From Octopus vulgaris (lineage: Eukaryota): a stretch of DNA of 64,000 bases. Below, in pieces: positions 6,324 to 64,000 of the stretch (positions are counted from its first letter, which is position 1; each line of letters begins with the position of its first letter). A program made the position numbers and the translations under genes. The stretch covers positions 50,282,001-50,346,000 of the forward strand of contig OX597831.1 of assembly GCA_951406725.2 (NCBI GenBank). Reading direction: 5' to 3'. The notes below the pieces were generated by a model. It was not told the DNA's origin, made no database searches, and saw only the letters and a program-made list of their open reading frames with translations.

Positions 6324-8136
6324 GATATACCAGGTTACTGAAATTATGTTTGTAACACGAGAGAGAATTTGTTTCTCTAAAGTAACTGCACTGCAGTGAA
6401 TTTGTCTTTAGAAGTTGAAATATACCATAAACATATTTGAACCAACTTAAAGTTCGCTTATACCTAAACATTGCTTGTTACTGATACTGCTTAATCTTTC
6501 CAGATCTGGCGGTCTAATACTGCAACTCAGTCAACATATGTGACTGGCTTTTAGTTAAATCTACCACTTTAAATCTGCCCATTGTGTATATATATAGTAT
6601 ATCTGCAGAAGATATAATCTCCTATGCTTAAGATATTAATTGAGAAGCACTTCCAACAAACACTTCAAAAGGGTAATACTTGAGACCCGTTAAGTTCATT
6701 GAAATGTAGGATTAAACGTGAAAAAATTATAATTTTGAAACAAAAATTGAAATAACTAAAAGAATAAATAAGAAAAAAAAACTTTCCTCCACCTCACAAA
6801 ACCAGAAATCTGAAGATATTTTAAATATCATAAATCTGCATAAAATCACATTGTGTTCCTGAAGTGAAGCGATCTGCAATTTTTTATCGCTTAATCAGAA
6901 GAGGAAGAAAAGCTCTAGTAGGAGAAAGGAAGGTCAGCGTCCTGGTCAGAAATCCTATAACAAAGAGGAGGCTATCCAAAGACCTTGTTATAGTGTTAAA
7001 GTAGAGGAGGGATATTCATACAATTTTGGTCGACTTTCGACTATGGTTGCAAAACTTTATCCATTACGCATTACTGATACCAATTTCAGAAATTATATGG
7101 ATGTGAAGTGAATACATTAACTGTGCAAACATCTACGTTGAGCTACCTTGTTCGTCATACATTACAGAGAATAACGATAGTCTTTGCTGGTAATCTTACA
7201 ATCGATTGACTTTTCTATAAATGTAGAATATGGTGAAATTACGACAGTACGGGCAAAAAAATATTCAAAATGCATCACATTATTTTTGTAGCTCACTCTT
7301 ACGAGTTCAATTCTTTCCAGCGTTTCTATTTCCATTTATATATGTGATTCCGCAAGACAAATCCTTCAAAGATAACGAATAAACCCACGGATACCCATTC
7401 TGCTTAGTAAATGAAGATGCCACGCATAAGCTCACAGGAACGAAGTCTCTTAGTTGTGAAGCGATGCTCTTAACTGTATAACCATTGCTGGGTTTCGCCC
7501 ATATGTGCTGCGTATATTGCAGATATTAATGGACGTCTTCAGGAGTGCCCCTACAATCCACTCTATACATAGTCAAGTAGGGGGAATTTATTGCAATACG
7601 GATAATAAATAATTTGTGTCATTCAAATGTGTGATACCTGTAAGACAAATGGATAATGGGTATATTCAATCAATATTATAACATTAAAAATTGGCTCTGA
7701 GCTCACTAAGAGAAAACGGCATTTAGAAGATCACCCTAATTTCTTTTTCGGTAGATATCCATTAGCAGTATAATTGCTTGCATTAATTAAAAGCAAGTTG
7801 TAGAAGAATAGCTATCATACAGCTGGCGATATAGAGACATTTAATTGCAGAGCACTACAGTGATATTCCGCTTTGCAGACACTATCAACAGCCTTAATTA
7901 CAGGCATGTATAGTTTGAATGATAATACGCCATTTCAATATGCCAGCATGATTACATATTAGTTTGCTTTATCTTTACGGAGGTTTAATATTCTGCTGTC
8001 CACTGGATTCTTAAACAAACCTTCTTAATCACACATACTTACGTAGTTCGTACATGCATGCATGCATACATACATGTAAATAATACTACTACTAACGCTC
8101 CTACCACAAACGCTACTACTAATAGCCGCAATTTAA

Positions 8137-8518
8137 AGGCGGCTGGTTGGCAGAAACGTTAGCACGCTACGTTCTGAGTTCAAATTCCGCCGAGGTCGAC
8201 TTTGCCTTTCATCCTTTCGGAGTCGATAAATTAAGTACCAGTTACGCACTGGGGTAGATGTAATCGACTTAATCCGTTTGTCTGTCCTTGTTTGTTCTCT
8301 CTGTGTGTAGCCCCTTGTGGGTAATAAAGAAATAGGTATTTCGTCTGCCGCTACGTTCTGAGTTCAAATTCCGCCGAGGTCGACTTTGCCTTTCATTCTT
8401 TCGGAGTCGATAAATTAAGTACCAGTTACGCACTGGAGTCGATATAATCGACTTAATCCGTTTGTCTGTCCTTGTTTGTCTCCCCTATGTTTAGCCCCTG
8501 GTGGGCAATAAAGAAATA
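8137..8518 (+). mobile_element. SINE family A (Meta-domain-like core), partial tandem dimer
   Basis: Two successive copies of CTACGTTCTGAGTTCAAATTCCGCCGAGGTCGACTTTGCCTTTCAT.CTTTCGGAGTCGATAAATTAAGTACCAG...GCCCCT.GTGGG.AATAAAGAAAT. Confidence 0.88.
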
Positions 8519-9574: not shown

Positions 9575-9800
9575 ATACCTATTTCTTTATTACACACAAG
9601 GGGCTAAACACAGAGGGGACAAACAAGGACAGACATAGGTATTAAGTCGATTACATCGACCCCAGTGCGTAACTGGTACTTAATTTATCGACCCCGAAAG
9701 GATGAAAGGCAAAGTCGCCCTCGGCGGAATTTGAACTCACAACGTAACGCAGACGAAATACCGCTAAGCATTTTGCCCTGCGTGCTAACGTTTCTGCCAC
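9575..9800 (-). mobile_element. SINE family A
   Basis: Reverse complement of 8137-8340 including tail. Confidence 0.88.
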
Positions 9801-18839: not shown

Positions 18840-19060
18840 AAATGTTATCGTGTACATTGTTTTGTCTTTGTACAAAAGATGGGCTGCAGCAAACATTCTG
18901 CTCAATACCACAGATTTAGGTGTTGCTTAACCTTAACCAACAGAACATGTCTCTTACTTGCTGACGATATGTGCATCTCTGATCACAAGCAGGTGTAGTG
19001 AGATAACATCATACCACGTGTTGAGAGGGATTCCTTAGAGTTTCACTAATTAGCCCCTGT
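18840..19060 (+). mobile_element. Fragment of the interspersed repeat also at 39093-39645
   Basis: TGTACATTGTTTTGTCTT...AAAAGATGGGCT.CAGCAAA.ATTCTGCTCAATACCACA...TGTGCATCTCTGATCAC shared. Confidence 0.75.
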
Positions 19061-24371: not shown

Positions 24372-24854
24372 CGAGAGAGCGGAAGAGAGCGGGGGAGAGA
24401 GTTGAGGGAAGGAGATGGAACATTAAATTATTTTTGTGGTTAAATATTCTACAACTACATAAATGCGCATACATTTAACGCGCTTCTTATGACAATTTAA
24501 CTTTTATACAGTATGTGAGAAGACTGAATTATAGATATATATTTCTTTACTACCCACAAGGGGCTACTGAATAAGAGGTATATATTTCTTTACTACCCAC
24601 AAGGGGCTACTGAATAAGAGATATAATACATCTGACAGGCTTACGGACAGTTTCATTCAACTAAATTTCACTCACTAGGCTTAAGTAAACCGAAGCAATA
24701 GCAACAGGCACGCGAGAATAGGCTGAGCGGTGACATCGAACTCGAGCCGCTATGATTGCTAAGTTAATGACTTAACATTTTAGCAATGCTTGAGACCATT
24801 TCTAAACTATATATCCATTACCAAAGAGTGAAGGAACAATTAAGTAGTCACGGT

Positions 24855-33684: not shown

Positions 33685-34080
33685 TACCTATTTCTTTACT
33701 ACCCACAGAGAGGAGGACAGACAAACGGATTAAGTCGATTATATCGACCCCAGTGCGTAACTGGTACTTACTTAATCGACCTCAATTAAATAAGTACCAG
33801 TTACTCGGCGGAATTTGAACTCAGAACGTAGCGGCAGACAAAATACCTATTTCTTTACTGCCAACAAGGGGCTAAACACAGAGAGGACAAGCAAGGACAG
33901 ACAAACGGATTAAGTCGATTATATCGACCCCGGTGCGTAACTGGTACTTATTTAATCGACCCCGAAAAGATGAAAGGCAAAGTCGACCTCGGCGGAATTT
34001 GAACTCAGAACGTAACGGCAGACGAAATACCGCTAAGTATTTCGCCCGGCGTGCTAACGTTACTGCCAGCTCACCACCTT
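33685..34080 (-). mobile_element. SINE family A, partial tandem dimer
   Basis: Two successive reverse copies, structure like 8137-8518. Confidence 0.88.
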
Positions 34081-34717
34081 GTAGAGCCTAAGAGTATACC
34101 TTTGGTTATTCCCTCTTCTTTATTCTATAATTGTCATCGTGAACAATGATAAGTTGCTTCTGTTTTGCATGGCACTAATAATTTCTGAAGTTCGTAAGCT
34201 ATCGTCGCGGTTGTTTCTTAATTTTATTTTTACACGAGTATGTTATTTATTTATTTATCTATTTTTTATTGCACAATATAATATGGTTTCTTTTGTGTCT
34301 GGCACGGAAACATTAGTAAACAAACTTCTAAGTTTGAATTGCAGATGTTGTCTTCTTCACTGGCCTCTACTAATTTCTTTCTAATATGGCCTTATACTGT
34401 TTTGTCTAGTGTATATTGATTGATAATGTTATCTAATAGTTCAGCGATCTTCTTATGTTAATGTATTTATTTCACATATTATGGACGGCGAGGTTATTAA
34501 TTCACTTGTTTTTTAATTGTTTGTTGATTTGTGCTGGAGTGAATTCTCTTTCTGATAGGAGGCAAACTGTAATTTTATTCATGCCTTTATCACCATAATT
34601 AATTTATTCAATTTAATTATTAATTCTGTGGTATTAGTTTCGCGAATACTCATGAATTTGTTTTTTGAGATTGAATAAATTTGTAAGTCTTAAAGTATAT
34701 TCGACCGATGTCACTTG

Positions 34718-57232: not shown

Positions 57233-57465
57233 ATATTTCTTTACTACCCACAAGGGGCTAAACACAGAGGGGACAAACAAAGACAGACAAAAGGATTAAG
57301 TCGATTACATCGACCCCAGTGCCTAATTGGTACTTAATTTATCGACCCTGAAAGGATGAAAGGCAAAGTCGACCACGGCGGAATTTGAACTCGGAACGTA
57401 ACTACAGACGAAATACGACTACGCGTTTCGCCCGGCGTGCTAACGTTTCTGCCAGCTCGCCGCCT
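57233..57465 (-). mobile_element. SINE family A with probable target-site duplication
   Basis: Full reverse copy; GTATAAAGTTTAATA on both sides (~57218-57232 and ~57471-57485). Confidence 0.88.
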
Positions 57466-57702
57466 TCTATGTATAAAGTTTAATACATTCAACATAAAAA
57501 ACGCCGAGAAAGCAGAAATGTTAACGCGCCGATCAAAATACTTTGTGGCATTTCGTCCTTCTTTTTAAATTCCGCCTACTTAGCATTTCATCCATCAAGG
57601 TTAATAAAACATGTACCAGTTGAGCACTGGGGTCTATATAGTCGAACTTATTCCCTCCCGCGAACTTACTCGAAACTAATATATTCAACATACATAACTA
57701 CC

Positions 57703-59634: not shown

Positions 59635-59933
59635 TTGTTCCTTCTCGAGCCACGCCTGGCTCATAATGGTCGGTTTTCCGGTTTCCATGGCGTATAGGTT
59701 CCCCACTTGGACGGGACGCCGGTCCGTCGCAGGTGAACTGCAAACTGCAGGAGGAAAGAGTGAGAGAAAGTTGTGGCGAAAGAGTCAGCAGAAGTTCGCC
59801 ATTACCTTCTGCTGGAGCCGCGTGGAGCTTAGGTGCTTCGCTCATAAACACACACATCGCCCGGTCTGAGATTCGAACCCACAATCCCTCGACCGCGGGT
59901 CCGCTGCTCTAACCACTAGGCCATTTGCCTCCA
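59635..59933 (-). mobile_element. SINE family B variant with V-domain-like tail
   Basis: Head GGAGGCAAATGGCCTAGTGGTTAGAGCAGCGGAC...GGTTCGAATCTCAGACCGGGCG. Confidence 0.88.
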
Positions 59934-60647: not shown

Positions 60648-60878
60648 CACACACTCATATAACGTATATCAGCATTATGTAGAAATGGATAATAGAATGT
60701 TTTAATAAAATATGAGTTTTTGTTTTGTTTTGTGTTTTGTTTTTTCGTGGGAGGAGCCTTATCTTATTGAGCCTCAGCATTTTTACATGGAACACGGATT
60801 TTTTCCCCTGTTACCCACTTTAAGAAATATTATATTAATGGACTCTTAGGGAGATGATAGGTAAAAATTGACTCTAGA

Positions 60879-62494
60879 CACTTATCGTGAGTTGATTTTT
60901 CCTTGTTACTGCGTTACACGTAAATTTTGTTAAACGTTTTTTCTTGTACGGTCGCGCGGGGTTTGTCTGTCGGAGTTGAGACAGACAAGGACGGCCCCTC
61001 CCTGATGGGAGAGACGGCTAGAGTATTCGAAACCCTATCGGACTTGTCTACGTTTGAGGAGGAGTTGGAGGAAGCGGTGAGGAGAATGGACCAGAAATTA
61101 GGTTATACCTATGCTGGAGTAGCTAAAAAATCGGAGGAGAGAGAGTTGGACTTAGCCAAGCTGCCAAGTTACCAAAAGTTTATTAAGAAGGACGGCGGTG
61201 AGGTGGAATTAGCACCGCCACCAAAGCGCAGAGAATGGTACCAGAAAAGAACCATTACATACAGGGTCTACGCAAACGGAAAGACAAAGATCGAAGTGGT
61301 GAATATGGAGTGGATAGAGGAGGCTCTGAGAAGAACAGAAGAGGAAATAATATTTCTGACTAGAGGTACAAGCTATGGTACTGTGGTAGTACAGTTCAAG
61401 AGTGAGAATATAGCAAGGAGGATGGCGGCTAAAGCAGTGAAATCTGAGAGGGTATTCCTTTTGCCCTCTTACTTAAATAGGAAAATTACCAGAATAAGGG
61501 TCGAGGGAATACCCCCAAATGTCGAAGCAGAGTGGATTGTGGCAGCTATAATTAGCGGTCATGAGGATGAAGTGGACATCCTCCATGCCACGGTAAAGAC
61601 CGAGGGCTGGAGGGGCGCAGCACTGGATCTGAATGTACAAGCAGAAGATGATGTACTGGAGAACCTAACAGAAAATATCAGATTGGGAGACGTAATCATG
61701 AGAGTGTGGGTGGAGGGCAGAGCTCCACGGTGTTACAAGTGTGGCCTGAGGGTCCACATAAGAGCTAACTGCCCTCCCCCAGAGAAAGAAATGGATGCGG
61801 AGCCACGAAGAGAGGCGGGAAAAGAACAGAAACCAGAGGAGAAGGAGACAATAGAAGAAGAAAATTCACAAGAATGGGAAGAAGCCAGGAAAAAGAGGAA
61901 GAGGAGAATAAGAGGAAAAGAAAACAACATGGAACCCCAATCCACCCCAACACCACCCACACCCTCTGAGTCCCACCCTCTCCCTGCAGACAGTGAACCC
62001 ACCCGCTCCCCTCCAACAAGAAAACAGAAAAGAAAAGACACACAAAACCAAGACACAAAAAATGAACCCAGGCCAAACATTGTATGTATGACGGGAAAAG
62101 AAAAGATTAAAAAGAAAATGGAAGAGTATCAATGGTGTGACAGAGGAACGATCAGGTATGCAGTAATTGGAAAAGAACGAATGGACGAGTTTATGGAGGT
62201 GTGTGAAAGGGAGGATTGGGAAGTAGGTGAAGTGAGAATGGTTGAAAAAATCATGAGGGATTTGGAAGAGACGTTTGAAAAAAGGATGGAGATGGAAGGA
62301 TTTTGTATAGGAACTGAACAAGGAGCATTTGTGTGGGATTAACAACTAAAGGACAGGTAAGTGATGCTAGCGGATGGGGCCGTTAGCATCACTTTCATAA
62401 TATCATTTTCAAAATTCATCTTTCATTCTTTGTAATTGTGATGTTCTATGTCCCCAATGTTTGTAGTGTCCCCTCGTGGGTAATAAAGAAAGAA
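60879..62494 (+). mobile_element. ORF1-only non-autonomous non-LTR retroelement (HAL1-like architecture), apparently complete
   Basis: 16-bp TSD AAAAATTGACTCTAGA at 60863-60878 and 62495-62510; one ORF; AATAAA at 62482; no ORF2 sequence. Confidence 0.88.
61005..62342 (+). CDS. Gag-like/ORF1p nucleic-acid-binding protein with CCHC zinc knuckle (L1/Tx1-type ORF1-like), 445 aa from first ATG
   Basis: Uninterrupted ORF; RRM-like segments (GTVVVQFKSE..A; RIRVEGIPPNV), V.VEG.APRCYKCGLRVHIRANC (CX2CX4HX4C), W...RKKRKRR basic patch, P/S/T-rich linker. Confidence 0.85.
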   Translation: MGETARVFETLSDLSTFEEELEEAVRRMDQKLGYTYAGVAKKSEERELDLAKLPSYQKFIKKDGGEVELAPPPKRREWYQKRTITYRVYANGKTKIEVVNMEWIEEALRRTEEEIIFLTRGTSYGTVVVQFKSENIARRMAAKAVKSERVFLLPSYLNRKITRIRVEGIPPNVEAEWIVAAIISGHEDEVDILHATVKTEGWRGAALDLNVQAEDDVLENLTENIRLGDVIMRVWVEGRAPRCYKCGLRVHIRANCPPPEKEMDAEPRREAGKEQKPEEKETIEEENSQEWEEARKKRKRRIRGKENNMEPQSTPTPPTPSESHPLPADSEPTRSPPTRKQKRKDTQNQDTKNEPRPNIVCMTGKEKIKKKMEEYQWCDRGTIRYAVIGKERMDEFMEVCEREDWEVGEVRMVEKIMRDLEETFEKRMEMEGFCIGTEQGAFVWD

Positions 62495-63394
62495 AAAAAT
62501 TGACTCTAGATGAATGTTGCTAATTTATATTGTAGATGCAGTGTAAGTTTCTACATAGTACAATCCATGTTTCTGTGGCGCAGAATATTCTGTCTCAGAG
62601 AATCCAGTGCACAGTTGATGTTTATTTACGTTATTTACATATCGGCCATCGAAGAAAGAAGTCAAATGGGGTATGATTTTAACTCAAAAGGTAAAATTCC
62701 ATAACTAAATACCGTAAATCCGGTATACGCAATAGAAGCAGTATTAAATTAAAGTAGCAATCTATGTATCATAATCAATGTTTATACACAATTTATACGC
62801 CAGTTATTGAAGAATTCAGCTGAAGCTCAGAAAGGTTGAAATACATTTCATGTTCCCACTGGCCACTGCTGGGAACACTTTTCCCCTCTCCCTGACAATT
62901 ATTGTGTTCTTAACAGAGTATGTCATTAAGAGATAATATCTCAGGAGAAATACCACAGTAACTGGCTTATGAGCGGTGTATATGCATTAACCATGATGCA
63001 TAGATGGCTATATTACATACTGTAAAATATTCCGTAGGACTCTAAAGAAAACTTCAATCAATTTGCTTTTCTCTTGATATATTCTTACTGGGCATCAGTT
63101 CACCGACCTAATATCGCCTCTCCTTAAACCAGTTATAATATTTATTTATTTATTTATTTATTTAGCGTTAAATGTATTACTGAGTCCGTGTCAGTAACAC
63201 CTTGCAATGACTTCACACAATCTTCTATATTTTAAAAAGTGTAATATCAGCAACAGTAAATAGCTACTTATAGCAACGACAAAAATAATCCTATCCCGAC
63301 AAAATCCTATATAAATCTTTAGGTTAGTTAGTTGTTTGAAATTATGGAATATCGGGTTAAACTCATAATATTTACTTTTGATATTTTTCATCTC

Positions 63395-63870: not shown

Positions 63871-64000
63871 TGGAGGTACATGGCCTAGTAGCTAGAGCAG
63901 CGGATTCGCGGTCGAGGGATCGCTGGTTCGAATCTCAGACCGGGCGATGTGCGTGTTTATGAGCTAAACTCCACGCGGCTCCGGCTGAAGGTAATGCCGA
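63871..64000 (+). mobile_element. SINE family B head (runs off the window)
   Basis: GGAGGTACATGGCCTAGTAGCTAGAGCAGCGGATTCGCGGTCGAGGGATCGCTGGTTCGAATCTCAGACCGGGCG. Confidence 0.85.

Follow-up and report, generated by a model that had tools for sequence, protein, structure and literature searches.

The 64,000-nucleotide (nt) stretch of DNA analysed here (the window) comprises positions 50,282,001 to 50,346,000 of the forward strand of contig OX597831.1 in the Octopus vulgaris assembly GCA_951406725.2. At window positions 60879–62494, it harbours a half-LINE (LINE, long interspersed nuclear element), that is, a retrotransposon encoding a homologue of the first LINE open reading frame (ORF1) only. 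The 3' end of this element is shared with an abundant short interspersed nuclear element (SINE), present in several copies in the window, and with LINEs that carry the endonuclease and reverse transcriptase (RT) in a second reading frame (ORF2). An initial annotation of the window had noted the common end of element and SINE and attributed both to a single autonomous LINE; the observation is confirmed and its interpretation partly supported by the results described below.

Between the two copies of a 16-nt duplication, the element measures 1,616 bp. A single sense ORF of at least 50 amino acids (aa) was found within this length, and no endonuclease or RT match was obtained in Pfam. Its last positions (62449–62494) read TGTCCCCAATGTTTGTAGTGTCCCCTCGTGGGTAATAAAGAAAGAA, with A5 next and flanking DNA thereafter (direct reading). 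The duplication, the constant 3' end and the existence of 5'-truncated relatives identify it as a target-primed insertion, which in the case of the window copy was an off-target event, outside the sites Y and M described below. The element is HAL1-like in kind: an ORF1 homologue is all it encodes, and ORF2-bearing autonomous relatives share its terminus.

The 445-aa product is, by its modelled fold, an ORF1 protein (ORF1p) of the type combining an RNA recognition motif (RRM) with a CCHC zinc knuckle. An AlphaFold model, computed from a 10-sequence alignment, reached a mean predicted local distance difference test (pLDDT) score of 58.8, with values of 70–86 over aa 50–250. When the model was compared with known structures using VIA-align, aa 71–159 matched the RRMs of La (Z 9.2–9.3), nucleolin (Z 8.7) and TDP-43 (Z 8.1), and aa 81–247 matched RRM1–2 of PABP with a middling score (Z 7.0). 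The zinc-knuckle residues C243, C246, H251 and C256 (CX2CX4HX4C) are unchanged throughout the half-LINE family alignment, and a profile search of solved structures returned retroviral nucleocapsid-type zinc knuckles only, weakly (E 0.005). Pfam gave no family above threshold for the 445-aa ORF, and a word-indexed homologue search found no relatives of it, probably because low-complexity words swamped the search. When the family profile was run through HMMER in full, 1,169 relatives were collected (E up to 0.001); those with names are from Octopus vulgaris, O. bimaculoides, O. sinensis and Argonauta hians, and the names indicate species and no clade.

At the DNA level, a search of the source genome (2.8 Gb) yielded at least 58 matches from 805 candidates, with 68–93% identity and some of them 5'-truncated. 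A protein search gave 95 scored matches, with every E value under 1e-169; 67 were stop-free and many were arranged head to tail at a spacing of ~1.76 kb. Copy sets were limited to small, search-biased samples of 30 loci each and do not represent a census. Among the 30 half-LINE copies fetched, starts varied (query positions 1 to 455) and the tail was present at every 3' end; unrelated ends, named in the initial annotation as evidence that would speak for an incidental tail, were thus not seen in this sample. Duplications of 13–21 nt were located within a few bases of ...AATAAAGAAA at seven of the 30 loci (L001, L006, L007, L009, L012, L013 and L019). A second half-LINE family (C-type) has ~30% aa identity to the window protein, an ORF1 only 34% identical to that of the LINE described below, and a tail of the type found on that LINE. 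The half-LINE families are deeply diverged, with 30–34% aa identity between them. Between half-LINE subfamilies, the ratio of nonsynonymous to synonymous substitution rates (dN/dS) is 0.15–0.22 at a dS of ~1–1.6 (Nei-Gojobori method), and the reading frame has therefore long been maintained by selection. Their age and the purifying selection acting on them characterize the ORF1-only families as HAL1-like parasites. Contigs from four sequencing runs, whose RNA origin is a guess, cover the half-LINE family and not its flanks, as repeated DNA would also do.

A common 3' terminus

The tail motif CCCCTYGTGGGYARTAAAGAAA, with up to two mismatches allowed, was matched eight times in the 64-kb window, against a mean of 0.00 in 100 dinucleotide shuffles. 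The matches lie at 8311, 8495 and 62470 on the plus strand and at 9582, 24542, 24585, 33850 and 57236 on the minus strand. The end shared by element and SINE is thus as first described, including the SINE ends at 8279–8333 and 8463–8517. The SINE sites listed initially were recovered at 8311, 8495, 9582, 33850 and 57236, whereas the one placed near 33690 turned out to be a tail with a deletion, belonging to unit two of a dimer, and the matches at 24542 and 24585 had gone unlisted. The common block is also longer than the 22 nt first recognized: ~45 nt (TTGT..TGT..CCCCTCT.TGT..GCCCCTNGTGGGYARTAAAGAAA) can be aligned across SINE, ORF1-only and LINE copies. Identity between the classes is 68–76% in the last 33 alignment columns and 20–35% immediately upstream. 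The window element, used initially as the exemplar, does carry this module but is atypical, lacking ~13 nt of the tail (TCTGTGTGGCCCC) that are present in the other 29 of 30 family copies.

All eight SINE 3' ends collected bear the tail, and SINE insertions stop at AAAGAAAT(A), as half-LINEs do. In both classes, the insertion ends at ...AATAAAGAAA with 0–8 extra A, after which a duplication of 16–21 nt follows; the half-LINE insertions L012, L013 and L019 end in AAAGAAA with no A added before the duplication. A dimer junction, in which the tail is joined to GGTATTTCG, was found at 8333/8334, within 33699–34090 and in locus L096 (~4346), the sequence following the tail (GGTATTTCGTCTGCC) being an internal position of the SINE. 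Either a source gene that was itself dimeric or a hot spot of template switching accounts for the shared junction. The SINE head may contain tRNA-like promoter boxes, as judged by eye; ARAGORN did not call the head a tRNA.

Table 1. Features of the half-LINE and of the tail-bearing sequences, with positions in the window.
Feature	Positions	Strand	Basis
ORF1-only (half-LINE, HAL1-like) retrotransposon, solo off-target insertion	60879..62494	+	Flanked by 16-nt duplication, single sense ORF
Left target-site duplication, AAAAATTGACTCTAGA	60863..60878	+	Exact 16-nt repeat of 62495–62510
Right target-site duplication, AAAAATTGACTCTAGA	62495..62510	+	Exact 16-nt copy of 60863–60878
Possible 5' tag (CACTTATCGTGA) from mariner-type target ...GTCACTTATTCATC	60879..60890	+	Short, weak match in window copy
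445-aa ORF, LINE ORF1 homologue	61005..62342	+	34% identity over 248 aa to LINE ORF1, E 5e-46
Predicted RRM fold (aa 72–159)	61218..61481	+	AlphaFold model, VIA-align matches
Predicted second RRM-like / ferredoxin-like domain (aa 158–240)	61476..61724	+	Z 6.8–7.8 to beta-alpha-beta domains, middling
CCHC zinc knuckle CYKCGLRVHIRANC (aa 243–256)	61731..61772	+	Residues invariant in family alignment
Shared 3' module (tail), ~13-nt internal deletion	62449..62494	+	Motif matches, copy alignment, cross-class tail alignments
SINE copy, tail 8279–8333	8130..8333	+	Ends in tail
5'-truncated SINE unit, head to tail with preceding unit, tail 8463–8517	8334..8517	+	Ends in tail
SINE copy	9578..9749	-	Ends in tail
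SINE dimer (full and 5'-truncated unit)	33699..34090	-	Single 20-nt duplication GGTATAYTCTTAGGCTCTAC around both units
Full-length SINE	57235..57466	-	Ends in tail, 19-nt duplication TATTAAACTTTATACMTAG
Two 43-nt tandem units, each with terminal 25 nt of tail	24541..24633	-	Tail-motif matches

An ORF2-coding LINE ending in the same tail had been predicted and was found. This young LINE, whose unit measures 5,262 bp in an intact copy, terminates in ...TGTCCCATCTGTGTTCGCCCCTTGTGGGTAATAATAAAACA at all 30 loci fetched, and four further ORF2-bearing lineages with the tail occupy a second target (see below). Long 3' poly(A) is absent from the LINE copies, which end in ...GGGTAATAATAAAACA or ...AATAAAGAAA with the target directly next. 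The 1,132-aa ORF2 contains the Pfam domains Exo_endo_phos (PF03372), RVT_1 (PF00078) and zf-RVT (PF13966). Among solved structures, human L1 ORF2p is its best match (E 6e-65 over aa 4–868), whereas R2 proteins match the RT core alone (E 5e-26). By ORF2 domains and best solved relative, the partner LINEs are assigned to the L1/Tx1 type, as had been surmised. Comparison of the two ORF1 products, likewise proposed at the outset, identified them as homologous: the LINE protein has the RRM/CCHC layout of the half-LINE protein and is 34% identical to it over 248 aa (E 5e-46). A genome search with the RT piece gave 104 scored matches of 97–100% aa identity, among which 101 were stop-free and 40 lay within open frames of at least 1,129 aa. 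That the half-LINE is a recent deletion derivative of the young LINE was ruled out, as ORF1 is only 34% identical and the untranslated regions (UTRs) are unrelated apart from the tail.

The ORF2-bearing lineages at the mariner-type target are 60%, 72%, 79% and 97% identical in aa sequence to the young LINE, and their 3' UTRs differ save for the terminal block. The proposed single driver is therefore better described as a group of lineages, since several LINEs with intact endonuclease and RT share the tail. One of them, L142 (72% ORF2 identity), has the terminus CCCCTTGTGGGCAATAAAGAAA / CTCTATGTTAGCCCCTTGTGGGCAATAAAGAAATA, an exact match to the pattern given in the initial annotation. Over 44 columns, L142 is 80–84% and L130 (60% ORF2 identity) 80–86% identical to the SINE tails. 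This conservation of the tail across diverged LINE enzymes is the best evidence available for a function of the block.

An alignment of 50 tails from LINEs, SINEs and half-LINEs revealed an invariant CCC..GG..A.TAA core. In these tails, the CCC/GGG mini-stem shows no variation or almost none, and the loop base is free to vary; RNAalifold returned a 3-bp CCC/GGG stem with a TNGT loop and nothing more. AATAAA or AGTAAA is part of the tail, which has AAAGAAA(A)n as its end; AATAAA is located 4–5 nt from this end.

In the LINE copies examined (L095 7505–8524 and the next frame; L097 4730–5161, minus strand), ORF1 stops after 340 aa, and ahead of ORF2 its end is overlapped by an open frame of 144 aa in a different phase. 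This frame could be a third ORF, the product of a programmed frameshift or a sign of decay; no similarity was detected between it and the C-terminal 125 aa of the half-LINE protein. The open frame around one RT match (G000:C9:119210482-119211669) spans 2,499 aa and exceeds the usual ORF2 length more than twofold.

Target sites and arrays

A repeat of ~480 bp, termed X, adjoins 22 of the 30 young LINE copies at one identical base; six copies run into the 5' end of a further LINE, and the remaining two into different sequence. Across 16 pairs of regions, X copies diverge pairwise by 6.5% and the LINE ends beside them by 0.6%, so the LINEs arrived beside older X copies. A search for X gave 2,070 candidates, from which 30 loci were taken. 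Of these, 23 were empty, with a common left half (...GTAGAGAAAAAAGAAGATTTGAAC) directly upstream, and seven were occupied, with a LINE or half-LINE tail abutting ACATGGAGGAAAGC. X thus constitutes the right half of a dispersed 1.05–1.2-kb repeat, termed Y (L102 ~802–2000), which has (TA)n on both sides, the end GACCCGGCAACGACGGGTCTTTAATGCTAGTA, an internal 147-bp duplication in some copies and, in its right half, a decayed ORF1-like reading frame. The idea that X is a 3'-transduced part of the LINE was ruled out, as X is ~10-fold more diverged than the LINE ends and most X loci are empty and have a different left half.

Five LINE 5' junctions were fetched, of which four were readable. In two of them, the LINE is preceded by the left half of Y and ACATGGAGGAAA; in the other two, the tail of a half-LINE and the same 12 nt (ACATGGAGGAAA) stand ahead of it. 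Each insertion therefore duplicates 12 nt, and repeated insertion at one site builds head-to-tail arrays in which the units are separated by this duplication. A 40-kb stretch around one array contains 14 head-to-tail half-LINE units, each with the tail, and a full LINE directly after them. A Penelope-like or retrozyme-like nature of the tandem arrays was considered and dropped, given the apurinic/apyrimidinic endonuclease (APE)-type ORF2 and the absence of a hammerhead from the Rfam results: at gathering threshold, no RNA family was reported for the 64-kb window.

Junction 10 of the 14-unit array (G000:C2, within 138768000-138777999) contains a 70-nt copy of the left flank of Y, and the same flank precedes the whole array. 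The copy looks like either a 5' tag from another Y site or a long duplication.

The mariner-type site, M, was occupied at ...CTGTCACTTATTCATC^GATACTC in 10 of 30 loci, by four ORF2-bearing and six ORF1-only elements. The reverse strand of the transposon that holds it encodes the C-terminus of a Mos1-like transposase (E 1e-14, PDB sequence search); Pfam gave no match for the mariner-type fragment. The half-LINE copies L002, L006, L011 and L015 carry longer 5' tags of mariner flank, the same sequence that forms the left flank of empty mariner sites, and L006 bears its tag though located elsewhere. These tags suggest that a master half-LINE copy resides in a mariner site and is transcribed from upstream. 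Two of the 30 half-LINE copies (L022 and L026) abut SINE heads. LINEs and half-LINEs thus prefer exact positions in M and Y, and target-specific insertion of this kind is a Tx1-like trait.

Proposed mobilisation of the three classes and competing explanations

We consider it likely, with some room for doubt, that the shared module is where the ORF2p of L1/Tx1-type LINEs initiates reverse transcription, in cis on LINE RNA and in trans on half-LINE and SINE RNA. In such a scheme, ORF2p would bind the module, or prime on its A-rich end, and would reverse-transcribe half-LINE and SINE RNAs in trans. The half-LINE would keep its own ORF1p since this protein would be needed in cis for the formation of ribonucleoprotein (RNP) particles. 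Repeated LINE and half-LINE hits at M or Y build arrays, copies can carry short 5' tags from the target of their master, and the choice of target could be guided by such tags. Recognition of the module, mobilisation in trans, the need of the half-LINE for its own ORF1p and tag-guided targeting are steps that we infer. The initially proposed supply of chaperone to SINE RNAs by the half-LINE is speculative. A bolder version of this explanation is possible, though doubtful: an RT of the L1/Tx1 superfamily would recognise a specific ~45-nt 3' module and sustain a three-tier ecosystem in octopods, composed of autonomous LINEs; of ancient ORF1-only hyperparasites, maintained by selection, which supply an RNA chaperone themselves and accumulate beside the LINEs at exact transposon sites; and of a genome-filling SINE that exploits the same module and scatters for want of target tags.

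Several points weigh against mobilisation through the module, beginning with the small and biased copy samples. We infer stringent recognition of the tail by the RT from its conservation alone, and the LINEs may belong to either the Tx1 or the L1 clade. The ORF1 of the half-LINE is only 34% identical to that of the one LINE family examined in full, so a closer autonomous relative may exist. In the 50 aligned tails, none of the three pairs of the mini-stem covaries (0/3), and these pairs are unable to do so because they are invariant or nearly so; the stem-loop initially proposed therefore retains its conserved CCC and GGG bases and gains no covariation. A 10-pair hairpin suggested by one copy performed no better than shuffles, and the folding energies of the tails are ordinary (single-sequence z -0.2 to -1.3). 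Conservation of the tail sequence is real, as judged from the alignments, and its structure is putative. As the tail holds AATAAA and an A-rich end, some of the conservation might be due to polyadenylation or to plain priming at a T-rich nick. Furthermore, no SINE was found at the 17 occupied specific sites (seven Y, ten M), although the SINE is far more abundant. Its absence either weakens the simple picture of a shared enzyme or indicates that the choice of target needs tags lacking from SINE RNA. By analogy with SINEU and Tx1-Mar, as presented in the available part of PMC4494074, a target preference determined by the enzyme should appear in its passengers as well.

The tail might instead be a polyadenylation or priming cassette that any L1-type enzyme can use and that spreads by template switching, not by specific recognition. 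The AATAAA or AGTAAA signal, the AAAGAAA(A)n end and the lack of structural covariation agree with this idea, and the head-to-tail chimeras inside one duplication imply that template switching or dimeric masters do occur; L1-type enzymes also need little beyond poly(A), according to the accessible text of PMC5753468. We nevertheless regard such a cassette as somewhat unlikely, as the 25–30 nt before AATAAA are kept across lineages of only 60–79% ORF2 identity, unlike the neighbouring 3' UTR, the loop base changes freely between invariant stem bases, and several insertions (L012, L013, L019) end in AAAGAAA without added A. In addition, an AATAAA only 4–5 nt from the end is too close for normal cleavage, which takes place downstream of the signal. 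Alternatively, only the half-LINEs would depend on L1/Tx1-type LINEs and the SINE would be driven, in the past or at present, by another LINE, the likeness of its tail being a relic. Such a driver would fit the presence of the SINE at 0 of 17 occupied Y and M sites, the unrelated locations of two SINE insertions that were checked, and the active RTE, Dong and CR1 LINEs of octopus genomes (available parts of PMC9115989 and PMC13282606, Table 1). It is made unlikely by SINE tails that are 80–86% identical to those of L142 and L130 over 44 columns and stop at the same end base, and by the similar lengths of the duplications (19–20 nt for the SINE and 13–21 nt for half-LINEs). Moreover, half-LINEs too insert off-target (7 of 30 loci), so a passenger without target tags could scatter.

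The ORF1-only units could finally be regarded as a tandemly amplified host gene family, derived from a domesticated gag-like gene, and not as mobile parasites. Strong purifying selection, the many intact copies in arrays of identical units and the annotation of relatives as proteins in Octopus and Argonauta records would all be expected of host genes. This origin is, however, very improbable in view of the solo copies on many chromosomes with 13–21-nt duplications and 5' truncations, the location of the arrays within transposons, at the very base where full LINEs are inserted, and the intronless units with a LINE tail at their end; selection between master lineages is also expected of an element that needs its own ORF1p. 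At this locus, the main octopus SINE is tied through its tail to a young group of LINEs, many copies of which are intact, and the same handle is found on large families of protein-coding half-LINEs under selection. A tail that is truly recognised would represent a stringent 3' signal in an element of the L1/Tx1 type. Intact ORF2 copies, defined tails and defined targets would then provide a tractable system for studying the competition of ORF1p-only parasites over a LINE enzyme, and the same system would be suited to the analysis of array building by target-specific LINEs.

Related systems and further observations

UnaSINE1 and UnaL2 were reportedly described by Kajikawa and Okada in 2002 as a SINE/LINE pair of the stringent type. 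The octopus elements resemble this pair in that SINE and LINE have a tail in common, tens of nucleotides long and, in the octopus, with a putative small stem-loop, and in insertions without long poly(A). The known stringent pairs belong to the L2, CR1 and RTE clades, unlike the octopus LINE, which is of the L1/Tx1 type and whose tail is a putative recognition signal. The telomeres of Drosophila carry mixed head-to-tail arrays of the Gag-only HeT-A and the RT-bearing TART and TAHRE at a shared target, and ORF1-only and RT-bearing octopus elements are likewise mixed in arrays at a shared target. In contrast to the octopus arrays, the Drosophila elements are of the Jockey clade, target chromosome ends and have a host function; they are not known to have a SINE partner.

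The mammalian HAL1 (half-L1) is a non-autonomous LINE derivative of several origins that codes for ORF1p only and uses an L1-type ORF2p, according to PMC5753468, in which Smit 1999 and Bao & Jurka 2010 are cited. The octopus half-LINE similarly codes for ORF1p only and would rely on the ORF2p of an L1-type LINE. It differs from HAL1 in its independent, octopod origin, its relatives coming from Octopus and Argonauta and not from mammalian L1. Whereas HAL1 has a coiled-coil/RRM/C-terminal domain ORF1p and a poly(A) tail, the half-LINE combines RRM and CCHC with a ~45-nt module shared with a SINE and no long poly(A). It is further distinguished by families of 30–34% aa identity, a dN/dS of 0.15–0.22 and site-specific stacking into arrays. 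The half-LINE is thus like HAL1 in kind and not a member of the HAL1 family.

Target-specific LINEs of the Tx1 clade include Tx1L in Tx1D and Tx1-Mar, which together with SINEU occupies Mariner-N4_AMi (Kojima 2015, PMC4494074, accessible part). In the same text, Tx1-Mar and SINEU are reported to form tandem insertions with a duplication between units. The octopus LINEs resemble those elements, so far as the source describes them, in an L1/Tx1-type ORF2, fixed positions in DNA transposons including mariner, tandem insertions separated by duplications, foreign 5' tags and non-autonomous passengers at the same sites. They are set beside the Tx1 clade by behaviour and domains. Unlike in the Tx1-Mar/SINEU system as documented there, the passengers at the specific sites are ORF1-coding half-LINEs and not SINEs, the tail-linked SINE being dispersed; and unlike SINEU, which the source gives as ending in poly(A), all octopus partners share the specific tail.

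SINEs and LINEs make up about one quarter of octopus genomes, as stated in the available part of PMC13282606. The repeat annotation of O. vulgaris in its Table 1 lists 13 recently active 'L1-Tx1' families, and half-LINEs and tails are not mentioned in the accessible text of that source. Candidate active octopus LINEs named in the literature are RTE and Dong (PMC9115989, available part). In the literature outside Repbase and subscription journals, no description of an octopus or mollusc half-LINE or of the present SINE–LINE pairing was found, and the searchable literature does not state which LINE drives the main octopus SINE.

At 24541–24830 on the minus strand, the window contains a sequence unlike the main SINE that bears the terminal 25 nt of the tail at its end and has its final 43 nt tandemly duplicated; no second copy of it was present in 720 kb sampled. 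ARAGORN called a 96-nt tRNA-His at 18852–18947 (minus strand), which may be a SINE-derived pseudo-tRNA, and no tRNA was detected by Rfam at gathering threshold within the window. A different tRNA-like repeat (...GGTTCGAATCTCAGACCGGGCG...), with no relation to the SINE that bears the tail, has copies at 59640–59930 and 63880–64000.

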